Assembly: GCA_036574205.1 (NCBI GenBank)
Contig: JAINCQ010000037.1
Coordinates: forward strand, 68,669 to 132,668
DNA length: 64,000 bases
Source of the DNA: Elusimicrobiota bacterium
Lineage (GTDB): Bacteria; Elusimicrobiota; Elusimicrobia; Elusimicrobiales; UBA9959
Reading direction: 5' to 3'
In this document: one piece after another, positions 26,764 to 48,730 of the stretch
Layout: each line of letters starts with the position of its first letter
Numbering within the stretch: the first letter of the stretch is position 1
Notes under the pieces: model-generated
What the model saw: the letters and a program-made list of their open reading frames with translations, nothing else
Told to the model about the DNA's origin: nothing
Database searches by the model: none
Made by a program: the position numbers and the translations under genes

Positions 26764-27510
26764 TCTGTTAGTATCGTTTAAATATATGTCAAATATTCTT
26801 GTTATATATTCTTTTAAAAAACAAGCCTGAAGATGTTCATAAAAAAATGGATATCCACCTTTTTTAAGCATTAATTCTGATGCCTTTATAAAATAAGGTA
26901 TTGTATCTGAAACTTTAACTTTAATTTCATTTTTTGATAGCTTTGCCCTACCTATATATTGAAGAAATTGAATGATTATTAATTTCAACCCTATTTTAGA
27001 AAAGAAATTTACATATCCATCTATATATTTTTAATTAAGATCATTGACAATGAATATTGAAGATAAAGGTATCTTTGCTTCTATTATGTTGTTAACTGCC
27101 TTAATCATTGTTTTATAAGAATTTTTAAAACCTGTGAGAAACTCATATTCTTTTTCCCTGTAATCAGGAATATTTAGAGCAAGGGAATCAACCTGTATTT
27201 CGGAAACTATTTTTGTAAATTTTTCATCGGAAAAGGCAAGTCCATTTGTGAATATATGAATATAATATACTAATTTTTTTGCCAATAGCAATGTTTTGAT
27301 AAAATCTTTGTGAATAGTTGGTTCTCCGTCGACAAGAGTTAGGTAATTAAATCCATTTTTTTTGCCAGAATAAAGCGTATTTGATATTGTTTTAAAATCT
27401 ATATCTATTTGATATGATTGGCTATTTCTTCTGTCTTTTGCAAAACAGTAAACGCAGCTCCTATTGCATCTATATGTCAGATAGAGTTCAATCCTTTTAA
27501 TTTCATTCAT
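26760..27510 (-). pseudogene. HxsC-type radical SAM pseudogene
   Basis: CNRSCVYC; GGEP changed to DGEP; in-frame TAA at 27031-27033 (LN*KY) between two same-frame ORFs; C-terminal Cys domain missing. Confidence 0.75.
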
Positions 27511-27511
27511 T

Positions 27512-28171
27512 TTATTTTTCAGGGATATATATTGTAAGCATTTTTTTCTCATTTATAAATTTATGAAAACAATTAATGTTTGTTTTTATTATTTCTGTTT
27601 CAAACGATATATCTTTTATATGTGTTATATAAAATGAATATTTTTTGCCATAGGTTGAATTAAAAATTTTTTTAAAAAACTTTGAGATTTTTTTATTTGA
27701 CAAATTTTCAGCGCCAAATATAAGAGTATTAATATCAGAGTTCAGATTAAAATTTATATCTTCTGGATCTTTTGGTATATTTATTATCAATAAATCATTT
27801 TTCAAAAGGTTTAATTCTAAAAAAACAGAAAAAATTCCATCTAAGGAAGAGACAGCCGGAATAAGTAATATCTCAAATCCTTTAAGTTTTGTGAATATTT
27901 CATCTGTTACACTATTAAGAAATGCTGGGTTACCATAAGTTATAAAAGAGATATTATCATAATGCGCAAATTTTTCCTTTATTATCTCTACTATTTGTGA
28001 TGGAGTGTTTTTTCTTATATTTTCAAATTTTTTAAGACCTAGTTTGAGAGCATCTTTTTTGTTAAGTGCGTCTGAAAGAACAATATCTGAGTTTTTTATT
28101 ATATGGAGTGTTTGTAATGTAATTTCTTCTGGTTTAAGTCCATATCCGCAAATAAAAAGTTTCTTTTTCAT
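27512..28171 (-). CDS. Tetrapyrrole-methylase-family SAM-dependent methyltransferase
   Basis: LFICGYGL..EEITLQT, SDIV, ITYGNPAF, IPAVSSLD. Confidence 0.75.
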   Translation of the reverse strand: MKKKLFICGYGLKPEEITLQTLHIIKNSDIVLSDALNKKDALKLGLKKFENIRKNTPSQIVEIIKEKFAHYDNISFITYGNPAFLNSVTDEIFTKLKGFEILLIPAVSSLDGIFSVFLELNLLKNDLLIINIPKDPEDINFNLNSDINTLIFGAENLSNKKISKFFKKIFNSTYGKKYSFYITHIKDISFETEIIKTNINCFHKFINEKKMLTIYIPEK

Positions 28172-29322
28172 ATATCAGTTTTCAATTTAAAAAAATATTT
28201 TCCATTTTTAAATTCCATTTCTATTATTTTCTTTGTCACAAGCCTTGCAGCTGCATTTATTACATTGTTTCCATCAGAACAATCTTTGCATAATGGAATT
28301 TTACTTGCCATCTTAATAACAGTCTCTGTAGGAATATTGTTTTTTATTTTAAGTATTTCTATAAGGCATTTTTCATTGTCTGTCAAATACTTTGAAGAAA
28401 AATCCTTTTTAGTATCCTTCTCTTGGTTAATTGGAATAATTCCTTTAAAACCAAAAATTGAAGCATAATTTGCGTTTATACCTGAACATTTTGAGTTTAA
28501 AATACAGTTTTTGCAGACTTTACTTTTCTTTTTATTTAAATTTGAACTTTCATCAAGATTTATCGTCTTTCCATCTGGAGATGTTACAAGTGTGTTAAAT
28601 GGATTAAGCCCTATGGCACTTTGCCAGTATTTTTTTAGAAAACAAGGAGGAACGTTTAAAAATAAAATTTCATCTCCAAGTCCTTTTTTTTCAAGATACT
28701 CAACAATATCTATAAAATATCTGGAACACCTATTTAATGGAACTCCGATTTTTTTGTTTAAAAACATGTTCCCTATATATATAGGATATATGACAACGAA
28801 ATTTGAAACTCCTTTATTAAGTAAAAAATTAACTAATCTTTTAAGTTTGTTATAATTGAATTTGTTTATTAGTATATTATTGCCAAGCCTAATTTTTAAT
28901 CGATTAATATTTTCAAGCCCTTTTACCGCATCTTCCCATGCTCCCAAACGAGAAACAAGCATATTATGTATTTTAGGATTTTCTGATACAAAAGAAAATT
29001 TACAAAAAGTTAATCCACTTTCTTTAAGTTTTTTTGCATAATTAAAATCTGCCAGCCTTATACCATTTGTTTGGATCCTTATAGATTTAAATCCTATTTT
29101 TGAAGCTACTTTTATTATCTCAGGTAAATCTTCTCTTATAGTTGGTTCGCCGCCGCTTAATCCAAGTTTTGTATAACCCATTTTCTTCGCTTTATAGATT
29201 TCTTTAACTATTTGGGTAAAAGGTGCATTTTTAGATTTATCAAAATCTCCCTGTGAACAAAAAAGACATCTCGCATTGCAACTATAGGTTAATAAAATCT
29301 CATAACAAAGATTATTATTCAT
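28168..29322 (-). CDS. Radical SAM protein (HxsC-type) with C-terminal extension
   Basis: CNARCLFC, SGGEPT, QTNG, VPPCFL, CxxC-x5-C; extra ~75 aa tail containing CKDC. Confidence 0.85.
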   Translation of the reverse strand: MNNNLCYEILLTYSCNARCLFCSQGDFDKSKNAPFTQIVKEIYKAKKMGYTKLGLSGGEPTIREDLPEIIKVASKIGFKSIRIQTNGIRLADFNYAKKLKESGLTFCKFSFVSENPKIHNMLVSRLGAWEDAVKGLENINRLKIRLGNNILINKFNYNKLKRLVNFLLNKGVSNFVVIYPIYIGNMFLNKKIGVPLNRCSRYFIDIVEYLEKKGLGDEILFLNVPPCFLKKYWQSAIGLNPFNTLVTSPDGKTINLDESSNLNKKKSKVCKNCILNSKCSGINANYASIFGFKGIIPINQEKDTKKDFSSKYLTDNEKCLIEILKIKNNIPTETVIKMASKIPLCKDCSDGNNVINAAARLVTKKIIEMEFKNGKYFFKLKTDI

Positions 29323-30404
29323 ATATTATGTAGTTTTCTAAATTGGGGAAGTTTAAAAAATAAAGCTATATATTTTTTCATCGAGTTTTTAAAAGTATTT
29401 TGCATTTTCGTGGCAATTTTAAACCTTTTTTTAAGTTCACTATCTTTTATAGCTAAAATATATTTAAAATAAAGATATAAGCCTATTTTACAAAAAAGTT
29501 GCTTATCAACTAAACCTTTTTTTCTCATTTTATTAAAAAATTTCCTTCTTTTGCTTAAAATATTTCCTTTCAATATAAATTTTTTAATAGTCTTTGGATC
29601 AGATGATATTATTTTATCGCATGGATAAAAGTTTCCATCAGGCATAAGAATTAAATTTGAGCAGTAAGGAATTTTTTCTCCTTTAAGAGAATAAAGGATT
29701 TCATAAATGTTAGAGAATTTATACATTTCACCTCTTTTTATAAGTTGCGCGTAATCTCTAAAAATTCTATTGATCTGCTCTTTTAATATTTTAATATCGT
29801 TTTCTTTCCATAGTTCGCCATAATTTATATTAAATCCAAAAGAATTAAATCCAATTTTTTTTAGGTGAATTATATTTCTTGAAAGGTTTTTTATGTTTTT
29901 TCTCGTAACAACCATATTTACAGAAGAATATGGTATAAGTTCAAATTTTTTAAGATTTGAGATAGCTAACTCATAATGAGATTTTTTGAAATATTTTTTT
30001 GAAAAATCATTTATATCTTTATCTCCATCTAAGCTTACAACAAGATTTATATTTTCTTCTTTTATAAATTTTGAAAGGTTTTTGTTTAGATGAGTCCCAT
30101 TTGTAAATATGGTTATAGGAATATTTTTAATTTTTTCCCTTGCCTTTTTAATATATGAGACAAGAGCTTTTGTATCAAGTGTCGGCTCTCCGCCGAGAAA
30201 AGTTATTCTGGGATTTTTTGAAATTTTTAAAAATATAGATAATGCTTTGTCAAATTTTTTTTGAGACAGTTTTTCACTTCTTTCTTTCCAGTAATAGCAG
30301 TAGGAGCATCTTATGTTGCAGTTAAAGAAAGGATAGACGACAAGGTGTTCTATTTTACCTTCATAAGCTCTTTGTCGCCGTAATGTTTTATATATTCTTT
30401 CCAT
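29319..30404 (-). CDS. Radical SAM protein
   Basis: CNIRCSYC, FLGGEPT, FTNG, SLDG, C...PDGNFYPC. Confidence 0.85.
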   Translation of the reverse strand: MERIYKTLRRQRAYEGKIEHLVVYPFFNCNIRCSYCYYWKERSEKLSQKKFDKALSIFLKISKNPRITFLGGEPTLDTKALVSYIKKAREKIKNIPITIFTNGTHLNKNLSKFIKEENINLVVSLDGDKDINDFSKKYFKKSHYELAISNLKKFELIPYSSVNMVVTRKNIKNLSRNIIHLKKIGFNSFGFNINYGELWKENDIKILKEQINRIFRDYAQLIKRGEMYKFSNIYEILYSLKGEKIPYCSNLILMPDGNFYPCDKIISSDPKTIKKFILKGNILSKRRKFFNKMRKKGLVDKQLFCKIGLYLYFKYILAIKDSELKKRFKIATKMQNTFKNSMKKYIALFFKLPQFRKLHNI

Positions 30405-31270
30405 ATTCCTTCACATAACGAATAAAGAGCGCATCCTATGCACCTTTTCGTTTTTGTTCTTGCTATTTTTTTTCTTGACTCTACCACATCTTCATTTATA
30501 AAATCAGGCGCCCAGTGTTTTGTAAAAAAAAGTCTTGCTTCGTTTATTTCGCTAATCTGTTCAATGTAATCTCTAAAATAACAGAGAGGCACATACCTGA
30601 GTTTCCATTGGAAAAAACCAGCGTTATTTCCGATATCAAGCGCGGCTCTCATATATGGCGCGGCTTTAGAAATCCTTGGGACCATACTAAAAAAATTTTT
30701 ATGAGCGCCTCCATACTGAGGATCAACAAAAATGTATTCCACATTTTTTATTCCTAATTTTACATGAAGTTTAGCTATATCAGGCAGTTTTTTATAATTT
30801 TGCTTTACTATTGTTGTGTTTCCATTTATATTTTGAAATCCTATTTTCCTTAAGTTATATATCCCCTCAATCATTTGCTTAAAAGAGCCTTTTGACCTTG
30901 TAAGATTATCATGGAGTCTTGAATTATGTCCGTGTATTGAAAATATTATAGAAGTAAGCCCGGCTTCTATTGCCTTTTTTGCAAAAGAGATATCTGAAAA
31001 CATCCTTCCGTTTGTCGCTATAAGTATATCTTTGATTTTGAGGTTTCTGGCTGTCTTTATTATTTTCAGAAAATCTGAGCGTATTGTTGTCTCACCGCCT
31101 ATTAACTCAAGTATATCTATTTTCTCTTTTTTTGCGGCAAGATATATCTCTTTTATAATTTCTTGAGTGTTTTTTTCTTTTATTTTCCTTTTATCACTAT
31201 TTATACAAAACACACAATTATTATTACATCTATAGCCTGTAAGTATAACTATTTTCTTTTTTTTATTCAT
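30350..31270 (-). CDS. Radical SAM protein (HxsC-type)
   Basis: CNNNCVFC, GGET, TNGR, VPLCY, CIGC-x5-CEG. Confidence 0.87.
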   Translation of the reverse strand: MNKKKKIVILTGYRCNNNCVFCINSDKRKIKEKNTQEIIKEIYLAAKKEKIDILELIGGETTIRSDFLKIIKTARNLKIKDILIATNGRMFSDISFAKKAIEAGLTSIIFSIHGHNSRLHDNLTRSKGSFKQMIEGIYNLRKIGFQNINGNTTIVKQNYKKLPDIAKLHVKLGIKNVEYIFVDPQYGGAHKNFFSMVPRISKAAPYMRAALDIGNNAGFFQWKLRYVPLCYFRDYIEQISEINEARLFFTKHWAPDFINEDVVESRKKIARTKTKRCIGCALYSLCEGIWKEYIKHYGDKELMKVK

Positions 31271-32472
31271 TTTAATAAAGATACAAGATTTATATTAAAT
31301 ATTATTTCAAAAAGGCATCCTAAAAAAATACCTTCAGCAAATGGTCTTGCTTTTACAAATTTAAGCTTTATGTTCTTATCAGGGTGGTTTTCCATCCATT
31401 TTTTTAATGCATCAACCTGTTCTTCATTTAGACCATCTTTGAACATATCATCAAAAAGTCCTTTAAAAACTTCATTTGTCCTGAGTATCTCAAGTTCATT
31501 TGAGGATAGTACCATTCCAGGTTTTATATCACTAGCTGTAACATAATATGTATTATGAGTTTCTATTATTTGCTCAAATATTATTTTTCCTAAGAAAAAA
31601 ATACTTCCAAATTTAAAGGTATTTTTTATCGCAGTTAACAAGATGTCATAAATAAATTGAAGTGGATTTGAAACTACAAAAACAGCTAAAATCATAATTG
31701 CATACATCAATATCATTATATATTTCCACAGTCTTGTTCTTAAAAACTGGGAAATTTTTGGCCATAAGAAAAACATCAGGAAAAAAAATATATCGGTTCT
31801 GTGAAAAATGTTGAAAACATATCTTCCCAGAATAAGATTAAACATTTGTTTATATGCAAATATTGATAAAATGCCAAAGATAGAAAAAAGAGCTGAAGGA
31901 GAATTCCATTTTATTTTTTTTATTTTGTTAAGATAAAATTCTTTTATTTCCTTAAAAGCATTATTATCTCCAGCTTTTAAAAGTGCTATATTGTCTTTCA
32001 GATAATAAAATACAGAGAAAAATGCTGAAAATACAAATATGTTTATAAGGGTTGTTATCCATATATAGTTTGGAAATCCTTTCAGGTCATATCTTATTAG
32101 GGGAAGAAATAAAATATTAGCTATAAAAAATTTAGAATCTCCTGCTGGCCATATCTCTCCATACCATAAAACTAATGAAAATATAATAGAATAGAATATG
32201 TGAATCATATATTGCTTGTAAAAAATGAAGTTTAAGTAATTTGAGCTCTTTCCATAATATCCCACTACAGTGTTTATAAGGTTAGCAAAAATAAGTATTC
32301 CTGTTATTTTAAACGCAAGAAGTATTTTTGAATTTTTTATTTTGCCGGTCTCTCTATCTTCTTTTATAACAGAGACACCCCATAGAAGATATGCCGCAAG
32401 GGAAATATAGGAAATCAAATTAAGGATATTATTTGAGTATTGGTTTAAGTTCATAATCTCCATATAACTCAT
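31267..32472 (-). CDS. A24-family (prepilin/preflagellin peptidase-like) membrane aspartic peptidase
   Basis: Multi-TM; first Asp motif EDRETGKIKN, second WPAGDSK (GxGD-type); FlaK-like C-terminal insert (IKPGMVL) and PFA...FLG end. Confidence 0.65.
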   Translation of the reverse strand: MSYMEIMNLNQYSNNILNLISYISLAAYLLWGVSVIKEDRETGKIKNSKILLAFKITGILIFANLINTVVGYYGKSSNYLNFIFYKQYMIHIFYSIIFSLVLWYGEIWPAGDSKFFIANILFLPLIRYDLKGFPNYIWITTLINIFVFSAFFSVFYYLKDNIALLKAGDNNAFKEIKEFYLNKIKKIKWNSPSALFSIFGILSIFAYKQMFNLILGRYVFNIFHRTDIFFFLMFFLWPKISQFLRTRLWKYIMILMYAIMILAVFVVSNPLQFIYDILLTAIKNTFKFGSIFFLGKIIFEQIIETHNTYYVTASDIKPGMVLSSNELEILRTNEVFKGLFDDMFKDGLNEEQVDALKKWMENHPDKNIKLKFVKARPFAEGIFLGCLFEIIFNINLVSLLK

Positions 32473-33319
32473 AATATCTTTTCATCAGCCCCAGGCATTT
32501 TCTTTTTATCTTGCATTTATAGCACTTTGAAGTATATATTCTTTCTTCTTTTGGTAAAGTTATCCATGCGTATTTCCTTAAGTTTTCTGAAAGAACGCAA
32601 AGTGGAAAATGATATAATCTGATAAAACCATCTAAAAACATATCTTCTATTTCAGAAATTTTTTTTGCGCTATCTGACAGACTCAAAAATAATTTATTTT
32701 TATTTATTTCAGCTATACCCTCTATTTCGTAGTGTATTATAGTAATATAAAAATCACAGGCAATAAGTATGTTTTTTATAAATGTTATAGTTTGCGGAAG
32801 ATCATCTATATTTAATCTGTGTATAACAACCCTTATTTCTATGGTACCTGAAAAATATTTTGCAAGATTTACTATCCCTGAAAGAGTTTGTTTATATGAA
32901 CCTTTTACTTTAGATATCCTTTCAAAGTTTTTTTCATTACAGGTATAAAAACTTATGGCCGTTGTAAATGGATTTTTAGCAAGTGATGCAAACCTTTTTG
33001 TAAATTCTACATTAGAAAATTTTCTTCCATTTGTAAGAAGGGTTATCGGGATATCAGGGAGTTTTTCCCTCAAATAAACAAGAAATTTGAAAAAATCAGG
33101 ATGAAGAGTCGGCTCTCCACCAGTTATGTTTATATAGTTTTTTTTATTATGATTTGAAAAGTAAACTTTTTCCCCTTTTTCAATATATAGTTTTAGTTTC
33201 TTTACCTGAGTTTTGAGATCATAATTGCCACTAGGTGTTGAGGTAGAATACTCTTTGGGATTTGTGCACATTATGCATTTGTTGTTGCATTTATTCCAGA
33301 GAGATATATCAGGCATCAA
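32429..33319 (-). CDS. His-Xaa-Ser system radical SAM maturase, HxsC-like
   Basis: CNNKCIMC, ITGGEPTL, LLTNGR, IEIRVVIH, LYHFPLCVL, CYKC-x5-CLG. Confidence 0.85.
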   Translation of the reverse strand: MMPDISLWNKCNNKCIMCTNPKEYSTSTPSGNYDLKTQVKKLKLYIEKGEKVYFSNHNKKNYINITGGEPTLHPDFFKFLVYLREKLPDIPITLLTNGRKFSNVEFTKRFASLAKNPFTTAISFYTCNEKNFERISKVKGSYKQTLSGIVNLAKYFSGTIEIRVVIHRLNIDDLPQTITFIKNILIACDFYITIIHYEIEGIAEINKNKLFLSLSDSAKKISEIEDMFLDGFIRLYHFPLCVLSENLRKYAWITLPKEERIYTSKCYKCKIKRKCLGLMKRYYELYGDYELKPILK

Positions 33320-34685
33320 ACCACCTTAAAAATATTTTATAATTTTCCTTTTTTGATAGTTTTTTTATTAAGATTTTAAATATTCCTTTTTCAATCTCAC
33401 ACCAGTATTGTGATTTATATGAGCCGTATGGAGTTTTTGAGGTTTCATAATTAAATACTGGACATATCCCGCAGTATGGTTTGAAAGCGCATCTAAAACA
33501 TTTTGGCTGATTCTCAAGACAGGAAGCCATAGCGCATACCCTGGCTGGACCTGAATTTATTATCTCATAATAGCTTGAATTAAAAACATTTCCAATCCTA
33601 AATGAGAAATCTCCATATGCTCCAAGCATCCTTCCTTCATCGCATGTATATATATCACCATCATAATTGTAAGCAATCTGTCCTATAGCTCCTCCGCATG
33701 GGCTTCTTAGATCAAGATAATTCGGGTCTTCATTAAATATAATTTTTTTGAGTTTTATAGCGGCATTTCTTTCTATAAACTTTTCGCTATAATTTATTTT
33801 AATTATATAATCAAGCGATTTTTCATAAAAATCCAAAAAATCTTTTGCGTTATAGCCTATTTCACTCCATTTGTATTTAGCATATCCTATTGGAGAAAGT
33901 GGCCTTATAAATATTCCACCAATTCCTAAGTTAAGATATTCTTCTATTATAGCTTGGGGGTTTGAAAGCGAAAATTTAGTTGTTGTCATAAGCGCTTGTG
34001 GAAGAGAATCTTTTTCTCCTTTTGAACGGCTATCTACAAGTTTTTTTATTTTTTTTAGCCAGTATATAGTTTTCTGATAAGAGGATCCTCCGTTATAAGG
34101 CCTGTTTGCATTGTGGATTTTTTCTGGACCGTCAAGGGATGTGCATATTGATACATTGTTTAACAATAAAAATTTTAATTTATCATCATCCATTAAACTA
34201 AGGTTGGTTACTATACTTAGTTTGATATCCTTATCACTTTTTTTGCTTTTTATATAATCTATGGACATTTTAAAGGTTTTCCAGTTTAAAAGAGGCTCTC
34301 CTCCTTGAAATTCTATAGCAATGTTTTGTGATGGAGTATTTAAGATGAAATCTATTGTTTTTCTAGCAGTTTCCTCAGACATTTCGCTTGATGCTCCAAA
34401 ATTTTGCGTTCTACAATATTTACACAGATGATTGCATCTTAAGGTAATTACCATAATATGCAAAGATGGAGAAGAAAAGACATATGAGGTAAGGTTTTTA
34501 TATTTTTTAATTAGTTCATTTTGAATTTTAAGGTTTTCTTTTTTTTTCTTTTTTTTATTAAGTAATTTCTCAAATTCATTTTTTTTAACAATGGAACATT
34601 CCCCAAAGTCATTTGAGATAAAATAGCCATCTTCAAGTTTTTCAAAGTAAAAGCCACAAATATCTTTAAAATTTTTTACTATCAT
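33309..34685 (-). CDS. hxsB: His-Xaa-Ser system radical SAM maturase HxsB (paralog 2)
   Basis: SLHIMVITLRCNHLCKYC, IEFQGGEPL, TSLDGP, FIRPLSPIG, DLRSPCG, YTCDEGRM, SPASM cysteines. Confidence 0.85.
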   Translation of the reverse strand: MIVKNFKDICGFYFEKLEDGYFISNDFGECSIVKKNEFEKLLNKKKKKKENLKIQNELIKKYKNLTSYVFSSPSLHIMVITLRCNHLCKYCRTQNFGASSEMSEETARKTIDFILNTPSQNIAIEFQGGEPLLNWKTFKMSIDYIKSKKSDKDIKLSIVTNLSLMDDDKLKFLLLNNVSICTSLDGPEKIHNANRPYNGGSSYQKTIYWLKKIKKLVDSRSKGEKDSLPQALMTTTKFSLSNPQAIIEEYLNLGIGGIFIRPLSPIGYAKYKWSEIGYNAKDFLDFYEKSLDYIIKINYSEKFIERNAAIKLKKIIFNEDPNYLDLRSPCGGAIGQIAYNYDGDIYTCDEGRMLGAYGDFSFRIGNVFNSSYYEIINSGPARVCAMASCLENQPKCFRCAFKPYCGICPVFNYETSKTPYGSYKSQYWCEIEKGIFKILIKKLSKKENYKIFLRWFDA

Positions 34686-35611
34686 TTCTTTAAAACTGGT
34701 TTAAATTCTTCCCATCCATAAATTTCAGGATATTCACGCCAGGGTCCTTCGCAACGAGAAAAATAAATGCATTTTTTGCATTTTTCAGCTTTAGTTTTTC
34801 CCTCATTTCTTCTGTATTCCCCATAATTTTCTACAAAAACATCTGCGTCTACAACGGGACCATCTGGGATAATTTTTTCCGCAACACATTCCTCATAGCC
34901 TTTCATAAAGCAGTAGGGAATAGCTTCTGTATAGCATTTAACTCTGGCTTTTCTCCCTTCATCAAGCGCTTTTTTAACATATGGAATAACATCCGACTTT
35001 TTGGGAACTATCCATTTCCTGTTTTCCCAAGCTGTGCCTATTATATGAATAAAAGCGAGTTGAAATTGATTAACATTAAGATATATAAGAAGCTTTGCTA
35101 TTTGTGGAAGATATTTGTAATTGACTGAATTTATAACAGTATTTGTTAGAACATAAAGTCCAAGTTTTCTTGCATTTATAATTCCCATTACAGTTTGATT
35201 AAAACTTCCTTTAGAATTTGTCAGCTTATCATGTATTTCTGGATTAGGACCGTGAAGTGCGGGGCTTATCTCAGTAGCACCTGCATTTTTCAATTTTTTT
35301 AAAAAATCTATAGAAGAAAGCGTTCTTCCATTGGTCTGTATTTGTATTTGTCTGTATTTAAGTTGTCTTGCTGCTTTGACTATTTTTATTATATCAGGAT
35401 GAATTGTTGGTTCTCCTCCGGTAAAAACTACTTGTTCTATTTTCTTTTTCGCTCCATCTTTAAGGGCTGAGACTATTTCATTATAATCTTTAGTTTTTAT
35501 TATGGATCTTTTTTCTCCTTGAGCGCAGAAGTCGCATTTATTATTACAGTTAAACGTTATTTTGATATCTAATTTTGATTTAATTGCCATATAACTTAAG
35601 CCACTTCTCAA
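34682..35611 (-). CDS. Radical SAM protein (HxsC-type)
   Basis: CNNKCDFC, FTGGEPT, QTNGR, IPYCF, CKKC-x5-CEG. Confidence 0.87.
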   Translation of the reverse strand: MRSGLSYMAIKSKLDIKITFNCNNKCDFCAQGEKRSIIKTKDYNEIVSALKDGAKKKIEQVVFTGGEPTIHPDIIKIVKAARQLKYRQIQIQTNGRTLSSIDFLKKLKNAGATEISPALHGPNPEIHDKLTNSKGSFNQTVMGIINARKLGLYVLTNTVINSVNYKYLPQIAKLLIYLNVNQFQLAFIHIIGTAWENRKWIVPKKSDVIPYVKKALDEGRKARVKCYTEAIPYCFMKGYEECVAEKIIPDGPVVDADVFVENYGEYRRNEGKTKAEKCKKCIYFSRCEGPWREYPEIYGWEEFKPVLKK

Positions 35612-36953
35612 AAATCCTTAAATTATTTTTATTTTCAATCATTTTAAATATCATATCAAAAATTTTTATAAATAATTTACATCTTTTGTTTATAGCCATA
35701 TTCCCCCATACGTTTTTTTGGGATATATAGTTATAGTATGGATGTATAATGCAATAAGGGGCATAAACACATCTTGCACATGATGGATGAACAAGGTATT
35801 TGAATCTATATAAAAGGATGGCTTTAAATTTTTCAGAATTAAGTATGTCTTTGAATGAAGTTTTTCTTACATTTGCAATTTTGAAAAAAAAGTCTCCACG
35901 ATCTCCTATCATTCTCCCTTCATCACTTGGATATATCCATCCATTTACATCGTAGGCAAATCTATGAAAAAGATCTACACTTCTTGACTCAAAATCATGG
36001 TTTTTAAATATGGAATGAATAAGCAGAAAAAGACCTTTTTCATAAATATCAAGTCCTTTCTTAATATTTAACTCAAGTATATAATCTATAGATCTTTTAT
36101 AAAAATCAAAATACTCATTTTCATCATAACCAATTTCTTTCCATATTTCTTCCTCCTTTGCTCTTCCCATTTGCTCAAGTATTCCAAGCTGTACCCTGTT
36201 AATTTTAAGTTCGATATAATTATCTATTATCTCTTTTTCTTTTGTCAAAAGTGGTCTGGTTATGGTCGTTATAATATTTGGAGTTTCTATATTTGCCTGT
36301 TGAAATTTTTTTAGTGCTTTTTTAAAATTGGAAATAGTTTTTTCATAACCCCCACGCATTACGTTATGAATACTTTTAGTAGCATCAATGGAAACACACA
36401 GGGATATTTTGTTTTTTATAATATAATCTAAATGTTCTTCATTTAATAAAGTCAAGTTTGAAACAACTGAATAGTGAATTTTTTTAAACATTTTTTCAGC
36501 TTTTTTATTAGCGTAGTCAATAAGAAATTTCATAGTTTCAAAATTTTTAAATGGTTCCCCACCTGTAAGTTCTATATAATATTTGTCTAATGGTAATGAT
36601 AATATAAAGTCTACTATGCTTTGAGCCGTTTCTTTTGTCATATCTGCTGAATTTGAGGGGTTGGCAAAGCAATAATGGCATTTAAGGTTACATTTATTGG
36701 TAAGGGATATAATATGGTCTCGAGGACCTTTATAATCAAGATAAAATTTTCTCCGTGATATCTCACAGATATAATCAAAATCAAGATTGTTAGCGATAAA
36801 TTGCCTATCTTTTAACTCAAAGCTTTTTTTACCAGCAATTTTCTTGCCTGATATAAAATTATTGAATTGTTTTAAATTAAGGAATGAATAAAACCCATAG
36901 TCATTTGTTATAAGATATTTATTATTTGAAAATTTTCTAAAATTAAAAAACAT
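35580..36953 (-). CDS. HxsB-like radical SAM protein (divergent paralog 3)
   Basis: YLITNDYG N-terminus, CNLKCHYC, IELTGGEP, IYPSDEGRM, CARC-x5-C. Confidence 0.8.
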   Translation of the reverse strand: MFFNFRKFSNNKYLITNDYGFYSFLNLKQFNNFISGKKIAGKKSFELKDRQFIANNLDFDYICEISRRKFYLDYKGPRDHIISLTNKCNLKCHYCFANPSNSADMTKETAQSIVDFILSLPLDKYYIELTGGEPFKNFETMKFLIDYANKKAEKMFKKIHYSVVSNLTLLNEEHLDYIIKNKISLCVSIDATKSIHNVMRGGYEKTISNFKKALKKFQQANIETPNIITTITRPLLTKEKEIIDNYIELKINRVQLGILEQMGRAKEEEIWKEIGYDENEYFDFYKRSIDYILELNIKKGLDIYEKGLFLLIHSIFKNHDFESRSVDLFHRFAYDVNGWIYPSDEGRMIGDRGDFFFKIANVRKTSFKDILNSEKFKAILLYRFKYLVHPSCARCVYAPYCIIHPYYNYISQKNVWGNMAINKRCKLFIKIFDMIFKMIENKNNLRIFEKWLKLYGN

Positions 36954-36954
36954 T

Positions 36955-37977
36955 TTAATGCCTATAAAAACAGTTTATCCCTTTTGGCCTTGATGGCTTT
37001 TTAATAGGTTTAAATTCTTCTCCACCAAAAGTTTTAAAATATTCCTTTTCAAATCCAGCACATATTTTACTATAAATGCAAAGTTTACAACTTTCCTGTT
37101 TCATCTTTAACATTGAATTTATTGTTGTATACATTTTGCCAGTGTAGCTTTTTTCTGGAAGATACATATCGTCATCTGAAAAAGGAATTTTCCAATCTGA
37201 TATCGTATCCTCATATCCTGTTGCCACACAAGGTGGGATATTACTTAAGATAGGAGATATTGGAAGAGCGTTTTTTAATAAAAGATAATCAATAGTTTTT
37301 GTCAAATATGGGAGCATTTGTGAGTATTTAAGCTTTAATCTATCCTTATTTCTTCCGGCAAGACCAATAAAATGAGTTGCAATGAGATTATATGTTTCTA
37401 TGCCGTATCTTTCATTCAAAAACTTTACTAATAATAGGATATCTTTGTAATTTATTATTGTTATTGCAGTGCTGATTGTAATATATACTCCATTTTCAAT
37501 AGCATTTTCAATAGCTTTTATTGTTTTTCTAAAAGCTCCTTTTATACCAACTATTTTATCATGTAATCTTTCATTATGAGAATGAACTGAAAAAGTAATG
37601 CTATTAAGTCCGCTTCTAAAAAGTTTCTTTGAAAATTCAGGATCTGACATCTTCTGTCCATTTGTAACCATTTGTATTATTTTAAATCCAATCTTTTTAG
37701 CTCCAATGATAGCATTTTCTATTTCTGGATATATTGATGGTTCTCCTCCTATAAATTGAATTATACGGCTTCCATTTCTATATGAATCTTTCATATGTTT
37801 CAGGATTAAGTAAAGTGGCATTGGAGGCTTTGTTTTCCATTCAGTCATTTGGGGAGAGCTATAGCAGAATATACATCTAGCATTACAATCATAATGAAGT
37901 GTTATCTCGCAAATATTAGTTCTTGTTTTCGGCCAATCATATTTTTCTATTGCTTTAAGTGTGGTTATTGCTTTCAT
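36955..37977 (-). CDS. Radical SAM protein (HxsC-type)
   Basis: CNARCIFC, FIGGEP, VTNG, IPPCV, CKLC-x5-CAG. Confidence 0.85.
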   Translation of the reverse strand: MKAITTLKAIEKYDWPKTRTNICEITLHYDCNARCIFCYSSPQMTEWKTKPPMPLYLILKHMKDSYRNGSRIIQFIGGEPSIYPEIENAIIGAKKIGFKIIQMVTNGQKMSDPEFSKKLFRSGLNSITFSVHSHNERLHDKIVGIKGAFRKTIKAIENAIENGVYITISTAITIINYKDILLLVKFLNERYGIETYNLIATHFIGLAGRNKDRLKLKYSQMLPYLTKTIDYLLLKNALPISPILSNIPPCVATGYEDTISDWKIPFSDDDMYLPEKSYTGKMYTTINSMLKMKQESCKLCIYSKICAGFEKEYFKTFGGEEFKPIKKPSRPKGINCFYRH

Positions 37978-37979
37978 AA

Positions 37980-39626
37980 TTATATTTTATATATTTTATC
38001 TACATCAATTATTACCTTCTCTCCATTTTTGAAAAAATCCATACATCCTTCAACAGCCACAATAGTTGGGATTTTCAGCTCTCTTGCTATAATAAGCGCA
38101 TGACTTGTAAAGACACCATTTTCAAGTATAAGCCCTTTTGCTTTTAAAAGTAGTTTGATATTTTTACCAAGGTTTTTAGCACATATTATCTCTCCTTTAA
38201 TGTCATTTTCAATATCTGTGTCGTTTATCAAAAAAATCTTTCCCTTTACTTTGCCGGGATATATGGTAATTCCTTTCAAAAAATTTTTGCTAAGATTTTT
38301 TCCTCTCATATATGTCTTTAAATTTTTTTTTCTTAACGATGATATCATCTTTTTTTTCAAGTCTTCATATTCTTTGATTAATTGGCTTATCTCAAGCGAA
38401 AAAGAATTGTATAACCTGTGGTTTTTATTGCCAAGATATTTAAAGAGAGTAGAATATATTTTTGTTTCAAATTTTTTTTCTCCTCTTATTTTACCTATTG
38501 CAAGTGTTGTAGTTGCCTCAAAAGGTTGCCTTATTCTATTTAAAAGGTCCATAACACAGTCATAGAAAGCGAACTTTGTGTTTATTGGTTCTATATCTTT
38601 TTTTTCTATATTATTAACTTTAAAATATTTCCTAATGTTTTTTTTGACATTTTCTATTATTCCTTTCCCCTCTTTAATTTTTCTTAATATTTCTTTATTA
38701 AGATTGTATATGTTTTTGAGTATAAATACTTCAGAGTTCTTTGATATAAAAGAAGTTTTTAGACCAAGAGATAAAAGCTCTTTGTTGATAAATTTAACTA
38801 TTTTAAAGTTGTTAGTAGCATTATATGGCGAGTAGAGAGTCTTTAAGTTTACATTTAATGGTAAGAAATCTATAGAAAAGTTTGGCGGCAAACTTCGGTA
38901 CTGAACTAATTTGAATTTCAGGTTAATGTCTATAAGAAATTCTATATCAGTTTTATTAAATGTTTTTCCACAGTTTTTTAGTTTATTGAATATCTGGCTG
39001 AAGAAAAGATAAAGAAAATAAAATTCATCAGTATTTTCTATTATCAGATCTTTTTTTACTGCAATAGTATATGGTTTTTTTATTCTTCCTTGCTCTATTG
39101 CGTCATGTCTCCCACCATCTGAATATTCTATATAAAATGATGGTTTTTCTATATCTTCCATAAAAATTACGCCGCTTACTATTGGTTTTATAAATTTTTG
39201 GATTATTATTGACATTGGTTGAATACCTAAAGTATAAGGAATAAGGTCTTTTTTATACTGACTTAACAGAACTTTTCTAATATCGTTAAAAATATTTTTT
39301 CTGTCTGAGATAATGGATTTAAAAAGTCCAGCATAAGATTTATTTTTTGAATCTTCTATTTCAACTGATGATCTTATTATAAATCTATCATAAAATATAT
39401 TAAGTTTAATTAGATTTTTAATTATATCTTTCATTACCGAAGAAGGTATTTTAGAATGTTTTATTTTTTCTATTATTAAGTCAAAGGAATCTTTTGACGT
39501 AACTCCAAAAGATTTGGATATAAAATCGGAGCCGATTATCAAAAAATCAGGGGTAAGTGACAAAGAATCAAGCTTTAAAAGATTTTTAGCTTTATTACCA
39601 GTTTCTTTTCCTATTATTATATGCAT
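37980..39626 (-). CDS. PEP-utilising enzyme: PPDK/PEP-synthase-type ATP-binding domain plus C-terminal phospho-His swivel domain
   Basis: IRSS..EDS..SYAGLF, IIQKFI...SGV, DIEF, VQYR; TSHALIIARELKIP His motif. Confidence 0.8.
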   Translation of the reverse strand: MHIIIGKETGNKAKNLLKLDSLSLTPDFLIIGSDFISKSFGVTSKDSFDLIIEKIKHSKIPSSVMKDIIKNLIKLNIFYDRFIIRSSVEIEDSKNKSYAGLFKSIISDRKNIFNDIRKVLLSQYKKDLIPYTLGIQPMSIIIQKFIKPIVSGVIFMEDIEKPSFYIEYSDGGRHDAIEQGRIKKPYTIAVKKDLIIENTDEFYFLYLFFSQIFNKLKNCGKTFNKTDIEFLIDINLKFKLVQYRSLPPNFSIDFLPLNVNLKTLYSPYNATNNFKIVKFINKELLSLGLKTSFISKNSEVFILKNIYNLNKEILRKIKEGKGIIENVKKNIRKYFKVNNIEKKDIEPINTKFAFYDCVMDLLNRIRQPFEATTTLAIGKIRGEKKFETKIYSTLFKYLGNKNHRLYNSFSLEISQLIKEYEDLKKKMISSLRKKNLKTYMRGKNLSKNFLKGITIYPGKVKGKIFLINDTDIENDIKGEIICAKNLGKNIKLLLKAKGLILENGVFTSHALIIARELKIPTIVAVEGCMDFFKNGEKVIIDVDKIYKI

Positions 39627-40330
39627 CAGACAAACCTGTATTTTTTAATTTTTAATAAAATGGAGGTTGTTCTTTGAAACCCATCAACTATCTCGCTGGA
39701 TTTTATCAAAAGTCTTTTTTTCATAATTGGACTTTCAGTTACAAGGGTTTGAAAGTCGTTTGCAGTTATGGTATTTCCTTTCCTTTTTTCATCTTTTAAA
39801 TATCTTATAAATCCTTCATCAATAACTTTGCCAAGCCAGTTATAGGATACATTTTTTTCTACAGCTGTTATAATATAGCGTATCCCCTTTGAAAGGGTTT
39901 TTTCTATAATATCAAACATATCATTTCCTTTTACTACTGAAATATATTTTATTCCCATTTTTCTTATACCCGAAATTATGTTATTGGTTATTTTTCTATC
40001 TTGTTTAGTTAAATCATAATCCATGCTGGATATAAAAATAGTTTTTTCTTCATGCCCGATGATTTTTACCGATTTTCTGATTGCGTCCAGAAAAGGTATT
40101 TCCATTTTATTATATTTATATTCATAACACCTAATTCCCATAAGATTTGCTTGCTTTTTTATTATATCTGATTTAGGAAACTCATTAAATATTTCATGAT
40201 GCAATTTACCAGCGTTAAATGTAAAGAGAAGTTTTAGATTGTATCCAAGTTCAATAGCCTTTATTATAGCAAAGTGAGAATCTTTTCCTCCACTATAGTT
40301 TGTAAAAGCAATTTTACTTTTCTCAGTCAT
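39626..40330 (-). CDS. Diphthine-ammonia ligase (Dph6)-like PP-loop ATPase
   Basis: YSGGKDSH, QANLMGI, WLGKVID, DFQTLVTESP (compare EFETLVxDxP). Confidence 0.7.
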   Translation of the reverse strand: MTEKSKIAFTNYSGGKDSHFAIIKAIELGYNLKLLFTFNAGKLHHEIFNEFPKSDIIKKQANLMGIRCYEYKYNKMEIPFLDAIRKSVKIIGHEEKTIFISSMDYDLTKQDRKITNNIISGIRKMGIKYISVVKGNDMFDIIEKTLSKGIRYIITAVEKNVSYNWLGKVIDEGFIRYLKDEKRKGNTITANDFQTLVTESPIMKKRLLIKSSEIVDGFQRTTSILLKIKKYRFV

Positions 40331-42293
40331 AGCATATATATAAGTTTATCTCTCCTATTAGGTTAAAAGAATTTATTTTTTTGAAACGTTTTTTTATTAA
40401 AGCAAAATCTTCATTATTTAAGGAATCAATTATATTTATTGAATTGACCTTGCTTAGTAATTCTTTTTTAATATCGTCACCAAACCATGAAAAGACATTC
40501 CATATTACTGTAACTTTTTTAAAAAAGTTTTTTGGTATAAAGTCAGTTATTGAGAAGATAGGGATTGAAAAATCCATGCGACTTTTATCACAGTATTTGT
40601 CTGTAATATTTATCCCATTTTTAAAATCTTTTCCAAAAAAATCAAGCCATTTTATATGAAAAGAATTTTTTATGTCTATAAATTCTGATGATATTTCAAC
40701 TAAGCTGTTGAAATTATATTGTATAAAAAGCCGTTTCTTTGATATAGTTAAAAAATTTGAAATATCAAATAAGATATATCTATCTTTTATTGAGGTGCTT
40801 TTCTTTATTTCGTTGGATATGAATTTTAAGACCTCACTGTATAAAGTAAGTCTTAAAGCATAGTTTTCAGGATTTATGAGATAACCAAACTTATTTTTAG
40901 TAAGGATAGATTCAATTTTATTTTTGTCAAAGTTTACATTTTTAAGGTAGGTAGAAAATTTTTTATAGGTTGTAAGATATGGATTTTGATGTTTTATTAT
41001 AGAAGAGCATTTTAAAAGTAAAGTATGAAAAAATCTGTCCATTTCACAGAGCTTTGCTATTGGCTTTATTTCGGAAAGTATTTCCTCTGTTTTTTTTATT
41101 TCATTCGCTGTATAAGTTTTAGTTGATAAAACTTTATAGGGATATTTTTTTGAATATTTTATACTTAATTTTTTTGAGTTTATTTCAAAAAATGTGTTTT
41201 TCCATATCATAAGACGAAAAAAATCTAACTTTGCACCAGATGATAACGCATAATCTATTGTTTTTTTGAAATTTTTTAAATTATCACCCGGAAGTCCATA
41301 AATAAATGATAATGTAAAAGGATATGAGTATTCAAGCATCTTTGGAGAGTATTTAAGAAAATGATCCTTTAGTTCTTTTATATCAAATATCCTATTTGCT
41401 TGTTTTAGAGCTTTTTTTGTCAGAGTTTGAACTCCAAATCCAAAAGTTATTCTTGGATCTAATATATATTTAAGTATATCTGGATTAAACTTATTTATCT
41501 CGCTATTAAAATTAAAAAAAACATTTCTTTTAATAGTTTTTATATATTCAAATATTTTTTTTGCTTTTTGAATGTCAAGAAATATATCGCTGTCGCAAAA
41601 TTCTATGCTTTTTACTTTGGGGTTTTGTGAGAGTATAAAAGCTACTTCTAATTTTAGCCTTTTAAAGTCAAATCCCCTGTATTTTATTATCCTGTTGGTT
41701 ACAGCACAATATCCACAGTTGTATAAACATCCTCTTGAGCCTTCTATGTAAAACTCGGAGTAATTTTTTACATCAAATATTTTGTTAAGATATGGAGAAG
41801 GTATCTTATTAAGGTCTTTAATAGGAGGTCTTGGAGGATTTATTTTGTACTTTTTACCATTTCTATAGATAAGCCCTTTAATTTTTTCAAACATCAAGTC
41901 CTTTCTGATAATAGAATAAACAAGTTCAAAAAATGTCTCTTCTCCTTCACCATAGACTATAAAATCTACTGGATAAAAATTAATTTTATCATAAAAGGAA
42001 GTATTTATTGCTGGTCCTACTAAAACTATATTAACTCTTTTAATTTTCTTCTTTATTTTTTTAGAGAGATTTATAAATATCTGTGGGTCATTATAGCAAG
42101 AAAATCCTATTAAGTTGGGTTGCCCTTTATCATAAAATTTTTTATCAATAGTACTTTCAAAATCTTCTACAGATTTAATAATGACATTTATGCCTTTTTT
42201 TAAGTTTTTTAAAAGGAAAGCCTTAAGATACCCAAGCTCAAGGGGAGGATGTTCAGTTTTCTCTGCTATAAGGTATATGTTATATGAATTCAT
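40323..42293 (-). CDS. Cobalamin-binding radical SAM protein (class B methyltransferase-like)
   Basis: PPLELGYL, GFSCY, GEGEETF, PSPY, EGSRGCLYNCGYC, GVQT, IYGLPGD. Confidence 0.85.
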   Translation of the reverse strand: MNSYNIYLIAEKTEHPPLELGYLKAFLLKNLKKGINVIIKSVEDFESTIDKKFYDKGQPNLIGFSCYNDPQIFINLSKKIKKKIKRVNIVLVGPAINTSFYDKINFYPVDFIVYGEGEETFFELVYSIIRKDLMFEKIKGLIYRNGKKYKINPPRPPIKDLNKIPSPYLNKIFDVKNYSEFYIEGSRGCLYNCGYCAVTNRIIKYRGFDFKRLKLEVAFILSQNPKVKSIEFCDSDIFLDIQKAKKIFEYIKTIKRNVFFNFNSEINKFNPDILKYILDPRITFGFGVQTLTKKALKQANRIFDIKELKDHFLKYSPKMLEYSYPFTLSFIYGLPGDNLKNFKKTIDYALSSGAKLDFFRLMIWKNTFFEINSKKLSIKYSKKYPYKVLSTKTYTANEIKKTEEILSEIKPIAKLCEMDRFFHTLLLKCSSIIKHQNPYLTTYKKFSTYLKNVNFDKNKIESILTKNKFGYLINPENYALRLTLYSEVLKFISNEIKKSTSIKDRYILFDISNFLTISKKRLFIQYNFNSLVEISSEFIDIKNSFHIKWLDFFGKDFKNGINITDKYCDKSRMDFSIPIFSITDFIPKNFFKKVTVIWNVFSWFGDDIKKELLSKVNSINIIDSLNNEDFALIKKRFKKINSFNLIGEINLYICYD

Positions 42294-43392
42294 AGGTAAA
42301 AGTAGTTTTAAACTTTTGTTTTGGAATTTTTTTTATCGGGTTTATTTTCTTTATATCTATCTGATCAATATATTCTATATTAAATCCTCTACATCTTTCG
42401 TTTAGAATGCATTTCCCACAAATTCCCTTTATTTTTGCACTTCTATTTCTTAAAATAGTTTTCATATCACTTATTTTTTCCTCCGGTATAAGAACTACCT
42501 CGTCGACTTTTTGATTAGTTTCCCAGTCAGCTATTATATTTAAATATTCAGGAAGTAGACATGGAGGAAAATTTATCAAGATTCTTGTGAAAAAAGGAAA
42601 ACCGTAAGCTTCGGCTATTTTAAGCCCTCTTCGTATTTCCACTGCCAGGTCAGATATTTCACATAATAATTCCTTATTTATTCTCATAGCGCCACTTGAG
42701 TTTGCTGCTATTATGTTAAAATAATTTATTTGAAGTTTGTTATAGGTAAGATTAAAGAAATTCACAAAATCTTTATAATTAAGTTTATTTAAAACGATAG
42801 CAGTAGCAAGCTCAGCACCTAATTCCTTTATATTTTCCATTGCCTTCATCGTTTCTTTAAAAGCGCCCTTTCTTCCTACAAGAGTATCATGGATATTACT
42901 TTTTGAAGAATGAAGAGAAATATCAAAGGAGTTAAAACCTGCGTCTATGAGTCTTTTTGCGTATTTTATATCTGAAAGTCTCCTTCCATTTGTACAAAGC
43001 TTTATACATTCATAACCCAATTTCCTTGCAAACTCTGATATCTTGAATATATCTTCTCTTAGTGTCGGTTCCCCTCCTATTATAGATGCTATCCAGCATC
43101 CTTGTTTTTTACCTATATAAAGCACCTTGCATATTTTTTCAAATGATATATTTTGATTGTGGTTTAGAAGTTTGGGATCATTATAACAAAAAAGGCATCT
43201 GTTATTACATGTGGTATTAACTGTGACCTCTGCAGAATATGGTTTTAATGAGAGGTCCCATTCAATAGCTTTTATTCTTTTTTCTATTTCTGCTTTTGGG
43301 AGTTTTGGGTTAAGTCTTTTAATTAGTTTAAAGTTATTTTCAAACCTAAGTCTTTCACATACCATATATCTCTCTTTCAAATCTGACTGCAT
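42280..43392 (-). CDS. Radical SAM protein (HxsC-type)
   Basis: CNNRCLFC, IGGEPT, CTNGR, FPPCLL, CGKC-x5-CRG. Confidence 0.85.
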   Translation of the reverse strand: MQSDLKERYMVCERLRFENNFKLIKRLNPKLPKAEIEKRIKAIEWDLSLKPYSAEVTVNTTCNNRCLFCYNDPKLLNHNQNISFEKICKVLYIGKKQGCWIASIIGGEPTLREDIFKISEFARKLGYECIKLCTNGRRLSDIKYAKRLIDAGFNSFDISLHSSKSNIHDTLVGRKGAFKETMKAMENIKELGAELATAIVLNKLNYKDFVNFFNLTYNKLQINYFNIIAANSSGAMRINKELLCEISDLAVEIRRGLKIAEAYGFPFFTRILINFPPCLLPEYLNIIADWETNQKVDEVVLIPEEKISDMKTILRNRSAKIKGICGKCILNERCRGFNIEYIDQIDIKKINPIKKIPKQKFKTTFTYEFI

Positions 43393-44419: not shown

Positions 44420-44428
44420 ATCATATGG

Positions 44429-44740
44429 TCAGCACCATCCTCCCCTTGAATGAGAGCCATGAGAACCGTGCGAACCATGCGAACCATGCGAACCATGCGA
44501 ACCATGCGAACCATGTGAACCATGTGAGGAGTGTGAACCATGAGAAGTGTGACTTGTATGACTTGTTCCATCAAAATAGTTTGTATGAACATATTGTGCG
44601 GATGCTTCTTGTGGAAGAGATGTTCCAATTATCCCAAGGGCTATTGCGGTTTTGACTATATCACTATCTAAAATTTTACCTTCTTCACTATTTAGATAAG
44701 TTTTTATTTGTTTTTTTATGGTCTTTTTATTATTCTTCAT
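44429..44740 (-). CDS. hxsA: His-Xaa-Ser repeat peptide (HxsA-type RiPP precursor)
   Basis: Leader followed by 12 tandem HxS triplets, then HSRGGWC; ATG 44740 follows a GGAGGGG RBS; surrounded by hxsB/C/D homologs. Confidence 0.9.
   Translation of the reverse strand: MKNNKKTIKKQIKTYLNSEEGKILDSDIVKTAIALGIIGTSLPQEASAQYVHTNYFDGTSHTSHTSHGSHSSHGSHGSHGSHGSHGSHGSHGSHGSHSRGGWC
44453..44560 (-). repeat. 12 x 9-bp coding tandem repeat (HxS codons)
   Basis: Five identical CGAACCATG units at 44471-44515, flanked by synonymous or variant units. Confidence 0.95.
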
Positions 44741-45737: not shown

Positions 45738-45738
45738 C

Positions 45739-46017
45739 CTACCTCCATTTATCTTCGCCAAGTGCTGATATAAGAGCTTTTGTTACTATCAACTGAGATA
45801 TCCTGAAATTTTTTTTGGCAAGATCTATTCTGCATTGTTCGTTCAAAGCCTCATTCATTAGCTTATCAAAAATATTTTCGCAGTCATTGCCTTTTATTTC
45901 GGCTATAATAGTTTTTTTATTATCATAAAGTTTTATCTGTCCAGTATTATCTATTATATTCTTTGCTATATTTAAAGCTTCATAACTATAAACCTTCTTA
46001 TCTATTTCAAACCTCAT
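45739..46017 (-). CDS. HxsD-like protein
   Basis: IDKKVYSYEAL...LMNEALNEQCR...LIVTKAL pattern; ATGA overlap with the hxsB stop. Confidence 0.65.
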   Translation of the reverse strand: MRFEIDKKVYSYEALNIAKNIIDNTGQIKLYDNKKTIIAEIKGNDCENIFDKLMNEALNEQCRIDLAKKNFRISQLIVTKALISALGEDKWR

Positions 46018-48627: not shown

Positions 48628-48730
48628 AACTCCCCCTTTTTTGCAGAAGCACAATCTACCATATTTCAATATAATATTATAATATATAAAACTTATATTT
48701 TCAAGTATATGTATAAATAAGCCATATAAA

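Follow-up and report, generated by a model that had tools for sequence, protein, structure and literature searches.

The canonical His-Xaa-Ser (HXS) system, HxsD-HxsB-HxsC-HxsA, exports a His-Xaa-Ser repeat substrate that is processed at its N-terminus, and for the HXS antiphage system of E. coli the part of the published description available here calls the N-terminal processing of HxsA non-canonical, states that it requires HxsB, HxsC, and HxsD, and names no peptidase (Li et al., Nat Commun 2026, PMC13128918). A stretch of 64,000 nucleotides from the genome of an Elusimicrobiota bacterium (contig JAINCQ010000037.1, positions 68,669 to 132,668; hereafter the window) encodes a giant array of radical S-adenosylmethionine (SAM) genes, which includes an HxsA4-type His-Xaa-Ser repeat precursor and a membrane protease. 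The protease is probably a dedicated, very divergent A24-type leader peptidase of this HxsA4 radical SAM system, and would cut the precursor after the residues E-E-G at the cytoplasmic face of the membrane.

Removal of the leader is a limiting step in efforts to understand and to express modified peptides. A word search of a 2023 review of leader proteases of RiPPs (peptides made by the ribosome and modified after translation) finds no mention of prepilin, aspartic, aspartyl, or A24 (PMC10885120), and no connection of a prepilin-type peptidase with Hxs systems or with precursors of RiPPs was found in the literature, where the HXS description and its preprint were the only papers on Hxs proteins that concerned the topic, with subscription journals outside the coverage of the search. 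A dedicated A24 enzyme together with a defined, invariant leader motif would make the unstudied giant Hxs clusters accessible through an enzyme and a substrate that can be tested directly. The pair is also relevant to the non-canonical route by which HxsA is exported and processed at its N-terminus in the studied HXS antiphage system.

Architecture and family of the membrane protease

The protease gene is located at 31267..32472 on the minus strand and encodes a multi-pass membrane aspartyl protease of a divergent A24/GxGD type in an open reading frame (ORF) of 401 amino acids. Translation probably starts at the third ATG (32454), with a GGAG shortly before it, and yields a protein of 395 amino acids, as in the database copy; the residue numbers used here are those of the 401-residue ORF. 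The two aspartate motifs noticed in the initial annotation are both present. The first, E38-D39-R-E-T-G-K-I-K-N47 (32332..32361, minus strand), is positioned at the likely cytoplasmic end of helix 1. The second, W108-P-A-G-D112-S-K114 (32131..32151, minus strand), is of the GxGD type, and its residues W108, A110, D112, and K114 are invariant. The last helix carries the motif P377-F378-A-E-G-I-F-L-G385 (31318..31344, minus strand), with F378 and G385 invariant, and is preceded by a soluble alpha/beta domain formed by residues ~308-373 (31354..31551, minus strand), as delimited by the secondary structure of an AlphaFold (AF2) model.

No substitution of D39 or D112 is seen in the 16 close relatives of the protease or in any of the 85 wider relatives. 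The alignment of the 85 members has a mean column identity of 20% and contains eight invariant columns only: D39, W103, W108, A110, D112, K114, F378, and G385. Residues N47 and G111 are nearly invariant in the same alignment, and the soluble-domain residues G319, F340, F344, D346, G347, W359, and K369 are invariant among the close relatives. In the AF2 model, which has a predicted local distance difference test score (pLDDT) of 79.7, D39 ends the helix of residues 16-42, ahead of the sequence R-E-T-G-K-I-K-N-S-K, and D112 opens the helix of residues 110-126. The two aspartates are on the side of the Lys-rich loops. According to the positive-inside rule, this side is likely to be the cytoplasmic face, as in known A24 enzymes.

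The comparison of the AF2 model with 48,161 chains from the PDB by VIA-align placed the archaeal GxGD preflagellin peptidase FlaK (3s0x_B), known from a crystal structure, first, with a Z-score of 10.3, which is under the value of ~13 advised by the alignment tool for helical bundles. FlaK is the sole chain with Z ≥ 8, followed by a row of 7.1, and 168 of 186 residues could be aligned over model residues 20-401 with a root-mean-square deviation of 3.2 and 17% identity. The profile PF01478 (Peptidase_A24) matches 34 of the 85 relatives when these are scanned singly at E ≤ 0.01 (best 7.5e-9), and the ortholog from genome G122 reaches 28.3 bits, which is above the gathering score. Look-alikes in the ESM Atlas beyond the protease's own cluster carry PF01478 in 29%, 73%, and 53% of their members. 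These look-alikes are 345-371 amino acids long, and one of their clusters has a C-terminal PF06819 (Arc_PepC) domain.

The same genome encodes a PilD-type prepilin peptidase on contig 36 (L001:949-1719) with scores of 114.7 bits for A24_N_bact (PF06750) and 54.9 bits for PF01478. The first invariant aspartate of the protease family falls on model position ~14 of PF01478 in six of six relatives checked, which is also the position of D116 of PilD, and the two aspartates are 73 residues apart in the protease and 70 in PilD. The pairing of D112 with D186 of PilD is weak (E 0.14). A24_N_bact is absent from the protease, which is therefore not a PilD. A canonical PilD is present in 19 of 21 relatives. 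One more weak match to PF01478 in the genome (contig 10, 17.3 bits) was dropped, as its ORF looks to be of the SecD/SecF type by eye.

From the fold match to FlaK, the PF01478 matches of the relatives, and the Atlas look-alikes, we conclude that the protein is a far-diverged A24/GxGD protease with a long archaeal-like architecture, in agreement with the A24-type identity, with two aspartate motifs, given in the initial annotation. The protease has 26 close members, and its family comprises 298 cluster representatives at E ≤ 1e-3. The A24 family thus extends well past the limits of recognition by Pfam, and the query itself is unannotated.

The HxsA4 precursor, its leader, and the predicted complex

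The precursor, whose sequence was quoted exactly in the initial annotation, is encoded at 44429..44740 on the minus strand and is preceded by the ribosome-binding site GGAGGGG, located 5 nucleotides ahead of the ATG. The protein of 103 amino acids is an HxsA4 His-Xaa-Ser repeat precursor, with a score of 77.5 bits for NF038313 (cut-off 55; model positions 4-91 of 93). Its leader contains the motif Y15-L-N-S-E-E-G21 (44678..44698, minus strand), and the proposed cut is between G21 and K22. The motif is followed by the hydrophobic segment I28-L42 (44615..44659, minus strand), in which L35, G36, and G39 are invariant in relatives as part of an invariant L-G-I-x-G, and by A46-S-A48 (44597..44605, minus strand), judged by eye to be a candidate site for signal peptidase I ahead of Q49; in relatives, too, small residues are found at its -3 and -1. 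Twelve His-Xaa-Ser units, identified by translation and alignment, extend from H61 to S96 (44453..44560, minus strand) and are followed by H-S-R-G-G-W-C. In HxsA4 relatives the tail S/A/C-R-G-G-W-C is conserved after the repeats; it reads C-R-G-G-W-C-N/C-P-R-C in one subgroup, and the C-terminus of other subgroups is a single W or Y.

The conservation of the leader motif was determined in 46 unique HxS-repeat ORFs that had been selected without using the motif. The sequence S-E-E-[G/A] is present upstream of the repeats in 44 of them, which are all those with a readable leader. One of the two exceptions is an antisense artefact, and in the other the motif was cut off by the 75-residue analysis window. 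In the 44 unique relatives, position -7 is F in 43 and Y in one, which is the precursor from the window, and position -6 is L in 41. Position -1 is occupied by G (40) or A (4), and position +1 by K in 42. Position +5 is variable (S 14, E 12, K 9, A 5, Q 3, G 1), and position +6 is D (33) or N (11), never Y. The glutamate that pilins have at +5 is missing from the precursor in the window, as noted initially, and replaced by serine; 12 of the 44 relatives have it. A word-index search with precursor residues 1-48 retrieved only three proteins out of five candidates and added no information.

The resemblance of the leader to those of Flp/Tad prepilins, also part of the initial annotation, can be traced in register from -7 to -1 in Flp pilins of the same phylum. 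Flp pilins from other Elusimicrobiota families, identified by PF04964 and in some cases with TadE-like genes beside them, have the sequence M-x-x-F-L-N/K-D-E-S-G before the cut and Q-G-M-V-E-Y-I-L-I-V-A-L-I-A after it. HxsA4 and Flp leaders share F(-7), L(-6), E(-3), and G(-1). The arrangement of E-Y at +5/+6 with a hydrophobic stem that begins at the cut is not found in the precursor. The leader is Flp-like, and the peptide is not an Flp pilin. The best PF04964 match in the whole genome, at 12.3 bits, lies elsewhere than the precursor. A search with family profile hidden Markov models (HMMs) detected no TadV-type bridge beside real flp genes at E < 0.25, and the ORFs upstream of flp are TadE-like.

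PF04964 matches 111 of 401 Elusimicrobiota genomes, and none in the three HxsA4-bearing families f1, f6, and f8 (0/46, 0/10, and 0/48 genomes). In these 401 genomes, the Flp and HxsA4 systems are mutually exclusive at the level of families, with Flp missing from all 104 genomes of f1, f6, and f8 together and present in 59 of 89 genomes of f16. This exclusion fits a derivation of HxsA4 leaders from Flp-type leaders, or their replacement of them.

The complex of the protease with the precursor was predicted from an alignment of 85 rows for the protease and one of 33 rows for precursor residues 2-56. The interface score ipSAE (interaction prediction score from aligned errors) is 0.80 (0.82, 0.78, and 0.80 in separate runs), and the best of three controls scored 0.00. 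At least 95% of the contacts are common to the runs, and the pLDDT of the partner is 78 or higher. The prediction passes; the pass mark is attained by 116 of 157 solved complexes and by 2 of 215 mismatched pairs, counts that apply only roughly here because the complex was predicted with alignments of its own. We know of no solved complex of a prepilin peptidase with its substrate, and a pass from memorised structures therefore seems unlikely.

The predicted interface consists of protease residues D39, 43-47, 106-113 (including G111-D112), 142-157, and 373-379. Counting the initial methionine of the precursor, Y15 (-7) is predicted to contact A110, and I23 (+2) as well as the residue at +7 contact F378. 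D27 (+6) is modelled next to protease residues 107-108. The hydrophobic helix of the precursor packs in the model on protease helix 137-166, at L142 and F146, and soluble-domain residues 319, 321, 342, and 344-347 also contact the precursor. The contacts with the lowest predicted error involve precursor residues 27-38. The model supports binding of the leader on both aspartate motifs. Since the G21-K22 bond sits between the modelled anchor contacts, we infer that it is placed in the cleft lined by the two aspartates.

Distribution and genomic setting of the pair

The 401 Elusimicrobiota genomes were searched with the protease profile and with NF038313. The protease profile matches 87 genomes, and NF038313 matches 99 at E ≤ 0.01, of which 78 score above the cut-off. 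Co-occurrence was tallied by hand, with HxsA4 counted at a best E ≤ 1e-8: both genes are present in 80 genomes, the precursor only in three (G226, G254, and G386), the protease only in seven, and neither in 311, a table that overstates independence because the genomes are kin. Within family f1, both genes occur in 40 genomes, the precursor only in two, and neither in four. Where the protease is missing, the weak NF038313 matches are spurious or cover the repeats only, and the precursor-only genome G386 is 81% complete.

The protease and the precursor are directly adjacent in genomes G344 and G374, and are located on the same contig in many others. Synteny was inspected in 80 public loci around protease relatives, 73 of them titled as Elusimicrobia-type taxa and seven as "bacterium" only. 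In 22 loci the protease has an HxS precursor at a distance of 10 kb or less, and, apart from one antisense artefact, every real one is on the same strand. At least three ORFs with CxxxCxxC are present on the protease strand in 69 of the 80 loci.

Two proteobacterial plasmid loci with HxsB and HxsC have precursors, one annotated as HxsA2, that begin directly with an ordinary signal peptide. Neither of these two loci, whose plasmid annotation is incomplete, has the leader motif or an A24-like ORF within 5 kb, as judged from annotation and HMMs for which positive controls scored. A different HxS/HYS-repeat protein is encoded in an Elusimicrobiota genome without an A24-like gene (L203, G256:C1:72524-75592); it has an ordinary signal peptide and no F-L-x-S-E-E-G.

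The source genome is 1.85 Mb long and 95% complete, and the window is AT-rich, with a G+C content of 26-33%. The protease and the precursor belong to an unbroken co-directional run of 21 ORFs on the minus strand, 27031..47898, the ends of which overlap or abut. Pfam and NCBIfam scans identify 13 of the 21 ORFs as radical SAM proteins. Two are HxsB equivalogs with 510.3 and 461.2 bits (NCBIfam cut-off 370), and a third HxsB-like ORF scores 316.5 bits, which is under that cut-off. Several ORFs are HxsC/HxsC4-like, all under the NCBIfam cut-offs: the best HxsC score in the array is 169 against 267.9, and the best HxsC4 score is 146.3 against 500. Two ORFs are HxsD-like, with a best NCBIfam score of 41.1 bits against a cut-off of 50. 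One array member is a B12-binding radical SAM protein, and further members are a phosphoenolpyruvate (PEP)-utilising enzyme, a diphthine-ammonia-ligase-like ATP pyrophosphatase, and a tetrapyrrole-methylase-like ORF. The same scans detected no pilus-assembly or Tad genes in the array. The initial description of the protease as the only protease-like gene in the operon holds inside the array in both Pfam and NCBIfam scans; a Peptidase_U32 fragment of 135 amino acids was found by Pfam outside it, on the plus strand at 26356-26763.

The PEP-utilising-enzyme-like ORF (548 amino acids) and the ATP pyrophosphatase (234 amino acids) are located inside the array at 37980-40330 on the minus strand, and their presence hints at ATP-dependent tailoring beside the radical chemistry. 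A comparable order of ORFs is seen in genome G226. Directly upstream of the precursor, and overlapping it by 11 nucleotides, is a Cys-rich ORF of 343 amino acids (44730-45761, minus strand) with one N-terminal hydrophobic helix and no match in Pfam or NCBIfam. An ORF of 232 amino acids just upstream of the array (47971-48669, minus strand) matches no family and carries an N-terminal hydrophobic segment. A radical SAM ORF of 173 amino acids at the array border (27031-27552, minus strand) ends after the core domain; this ORF and the Peptidase_U32 fragment may be truncated genes. Pfam identifies, on the plus strand at the end of the radical SAM array (22657-26359), a fusion of NifH-like and nitrogenase component-1-like domains (823 amino acids), followed by a second component-1-like ORF (428 amino acids).

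Proposed leader removal, rival readings, and known systems

The leader removal would proceed as follows. During or after modification of the precursor by the cytoplasmic radical SAM enzymes, its segment I28-L42 would dock on protease helix 137-166, and the conserved F/Y-L-x-S-E-E-G would then span both aspartate motifs. A cut after Gly21, which is Ala in 4 of 44 relatives, would free the Lys-rich leader. The new N-terminus, K-I-x-x-x-D/N with a short hydrophobic run and A-x-A, would have a shape like that of a Sec signal, and the A24 cut may license Sec export, followed by a second cut by signal peptidase I. This two-step route is favoured over a pilin-like or anchored product because the remainder after the cut is Sec-signal-shaped and simpler Hxs precursors start in this way. 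The membrane-anchored or pilin-like product considered in the initial annotation is doubtful, given that the precursor has no PF04964 match and no Y at +6, and has a polar gap, a short hydrophobic run, and A-x-A, and that pilus genes are absent from the array. The class III-type leader removal proposed with it fares better: the fold and family, the register of the leader, the co-occurrence, and the binding model speak for it, and from these we infer both the cleavage and its site.

It is possible, as a more tentative extension, that the Lys-rich F-L-x-S-E-E-G segment holds the precursor at the cytoplasmic face for its many maturases and masks the Sec signal, so that its removal by the protease licenses export only after modification. 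A pilin-type leader and an archaeal-type A24 protease would then have been taken over by a radical SAM peptide pathway. If true, this would be the first aspartyl intramembrane protease to serve as a RiPP leader peptidase, and would constitute a checkpoint between modification and secretion.

Several observations weigh against a dedicated A24-type leader peptidase. The protease has no match in Pfam even at E ≤ 10 and none in NCBIfam, and in the genome scan its own PF01478 score is 14.6 bits (E 0.044, model positions 7-99 of 104), with a gathering cut-off of 26.5. Besides the Z-score of FlaK being under the advised value, Foldseek found no match for the model in the PDB (best E 0.53), and a profile of the 16 relatives retrieved chance rows only from PDB sequences (best E 0.49). 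When the family was compared by hhalign with 17 PilD sequences over the whole length, only P-F-A...G of the last helix paired with P-F-G-P...G (E 0.01, probability 4%), and a loose run with the N-terminal slice paired D39 with D116 and D112 with D186 at a probability of 0.4%; neither result is significant. The precursor has no PF04964 match at E ≤ 10. Its motif Gly is followed by six mostly polar or charged residues, then by a hydrophobic run of 12-16 residues from +7, by a small-x-small site (A-S-A before Q here), and by a conserved H-x-N-Y. In the window, the protease and the precursor are 12 kb apart within the array, and the trait is confined to families f1, f6, and f8 and one f2 genome. 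The motif is retained in G254 and G226, where no A24-like ORF was found in ~40 kb around the precursor and in ~23 kb up to the contig end, respectively. The canonical PilD on contig 36 might do the job, and the requirement for HxsB, HxsC, and HxsD in the processing of E. coli HxsA must be counted here as well.

Some of these features would be accommodated if the whole N-terminus were one long Sec signal that signal peptidase I alone cuts, after A-x-A. The motif would then dock maturases or HxsD, and the A24-like protein would have another task, e.g., clearing the remnant of the signal peptide. The length of the hydrophobic run, the small residues at -3/-1, and the conserved H-x-N-Y speak for such a signal, and RiPP leaders usually carry conserved recognition motifs. 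Plain signal peptides are found on the proteobacterial HxsA-type precursors, and E. coli HxsA has a signal peptide according to the available part of its description (PMC13128918). This explanation is nevertheless unlikely, since it leaves unexplained the retention in the clusters of a GxGD protease with intact aspartate motifs, the exact register with Flp leaders, and the modelled placement of the leader motif on the aspartate motifs, and since an acidic S-E-E-G within an n-region would be unusual. It is less probable still that the protease cuts the precursor elsewhere, either inside the hydrophobic segment, like signal peptide peptidases, or after G36 or G39. GxGD proteases include intramembrane-cutting enzymes, L35, G36, and G39 are invariant, and the lowest-error contacts of the model are at precursor residues 27-38. 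However, the cut made by known A24 enzymes is, to our knowledge, in every case at the cytoplasmic face and after a Gly or Ala that precedes the hydrophobic part, and the stretch from -7 to +1 is the most conserved of the leader.

The protease might also be unconnected with the precursor, as a second pilin or pseudopilin peptidase or a non-catalytic membrane scaffold or exporter that is found in the cluster through the ancestry of the clade only. The restriction of the co-occurrence to a few families and the presence of a precursor within 10 kb in only 22 of 80 loci would agree with this. It is nonetheless very improbable, because in 69 of 80 loci radical SAM genes are found with the protease on one strand and in one array, because some genomes have it next to the precursor, and because four f1 genomes lack both. 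Moreover, both aspartates are invariant at ~20% identity, and 19 of 21 relatives have a canonical PilD. The probable function of the protease remains that of a leader peptidase of the A24 type that is dedicated to the HxsA4 system.

Among known enzymes, the protease is most similar to FlaK and the long archaeal-type A24 peptidases, which provide its best fold match and also have two aspartate motifs, the second in a G-D motif, no A24_N_bact, and a soluble domain followed by a last helix with a P-F motif. It differs from them in its second motif, which is W-P-A-G-D instead of G-x-G-D, in the extra helices at ~174-306, in its bacterial host, and in its proposed partner, which is a radical SAM-modified peptide rather than an archaellin or pilin. 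TadV/CpaA and the Flp prepilins of Tad pili share with the pair from the window the register of the leader and the presence of a dedicated A24 enzyme in each system, whereas the hydrophobic part of HxsA4 is short and set off by polar residues, and the array contains no Tad genes. The catalytic aspartate pair and the last-helix P-F-G motif of PilD from the same genome can be aligned with the protease, although not significantly, by hhalign, but PilD is encoded outside the Hxs array and the family profiles of the two fail to detect each other. RiPP leader peptidases, e.g., the intramembrane M50 protease EpeP, resemble the protease in being encoded in the cluster and proposed to remove the leader at the membrane. 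The canonical HXS system has in common with the window the HxsB equivalogs and the His-Xaa-Ser repeat substrate; in contrast to it, the cluster in the window comprises 21 genes with 13 radical SAM ORFs, and combines an Flp-like leader with a protease of its own.

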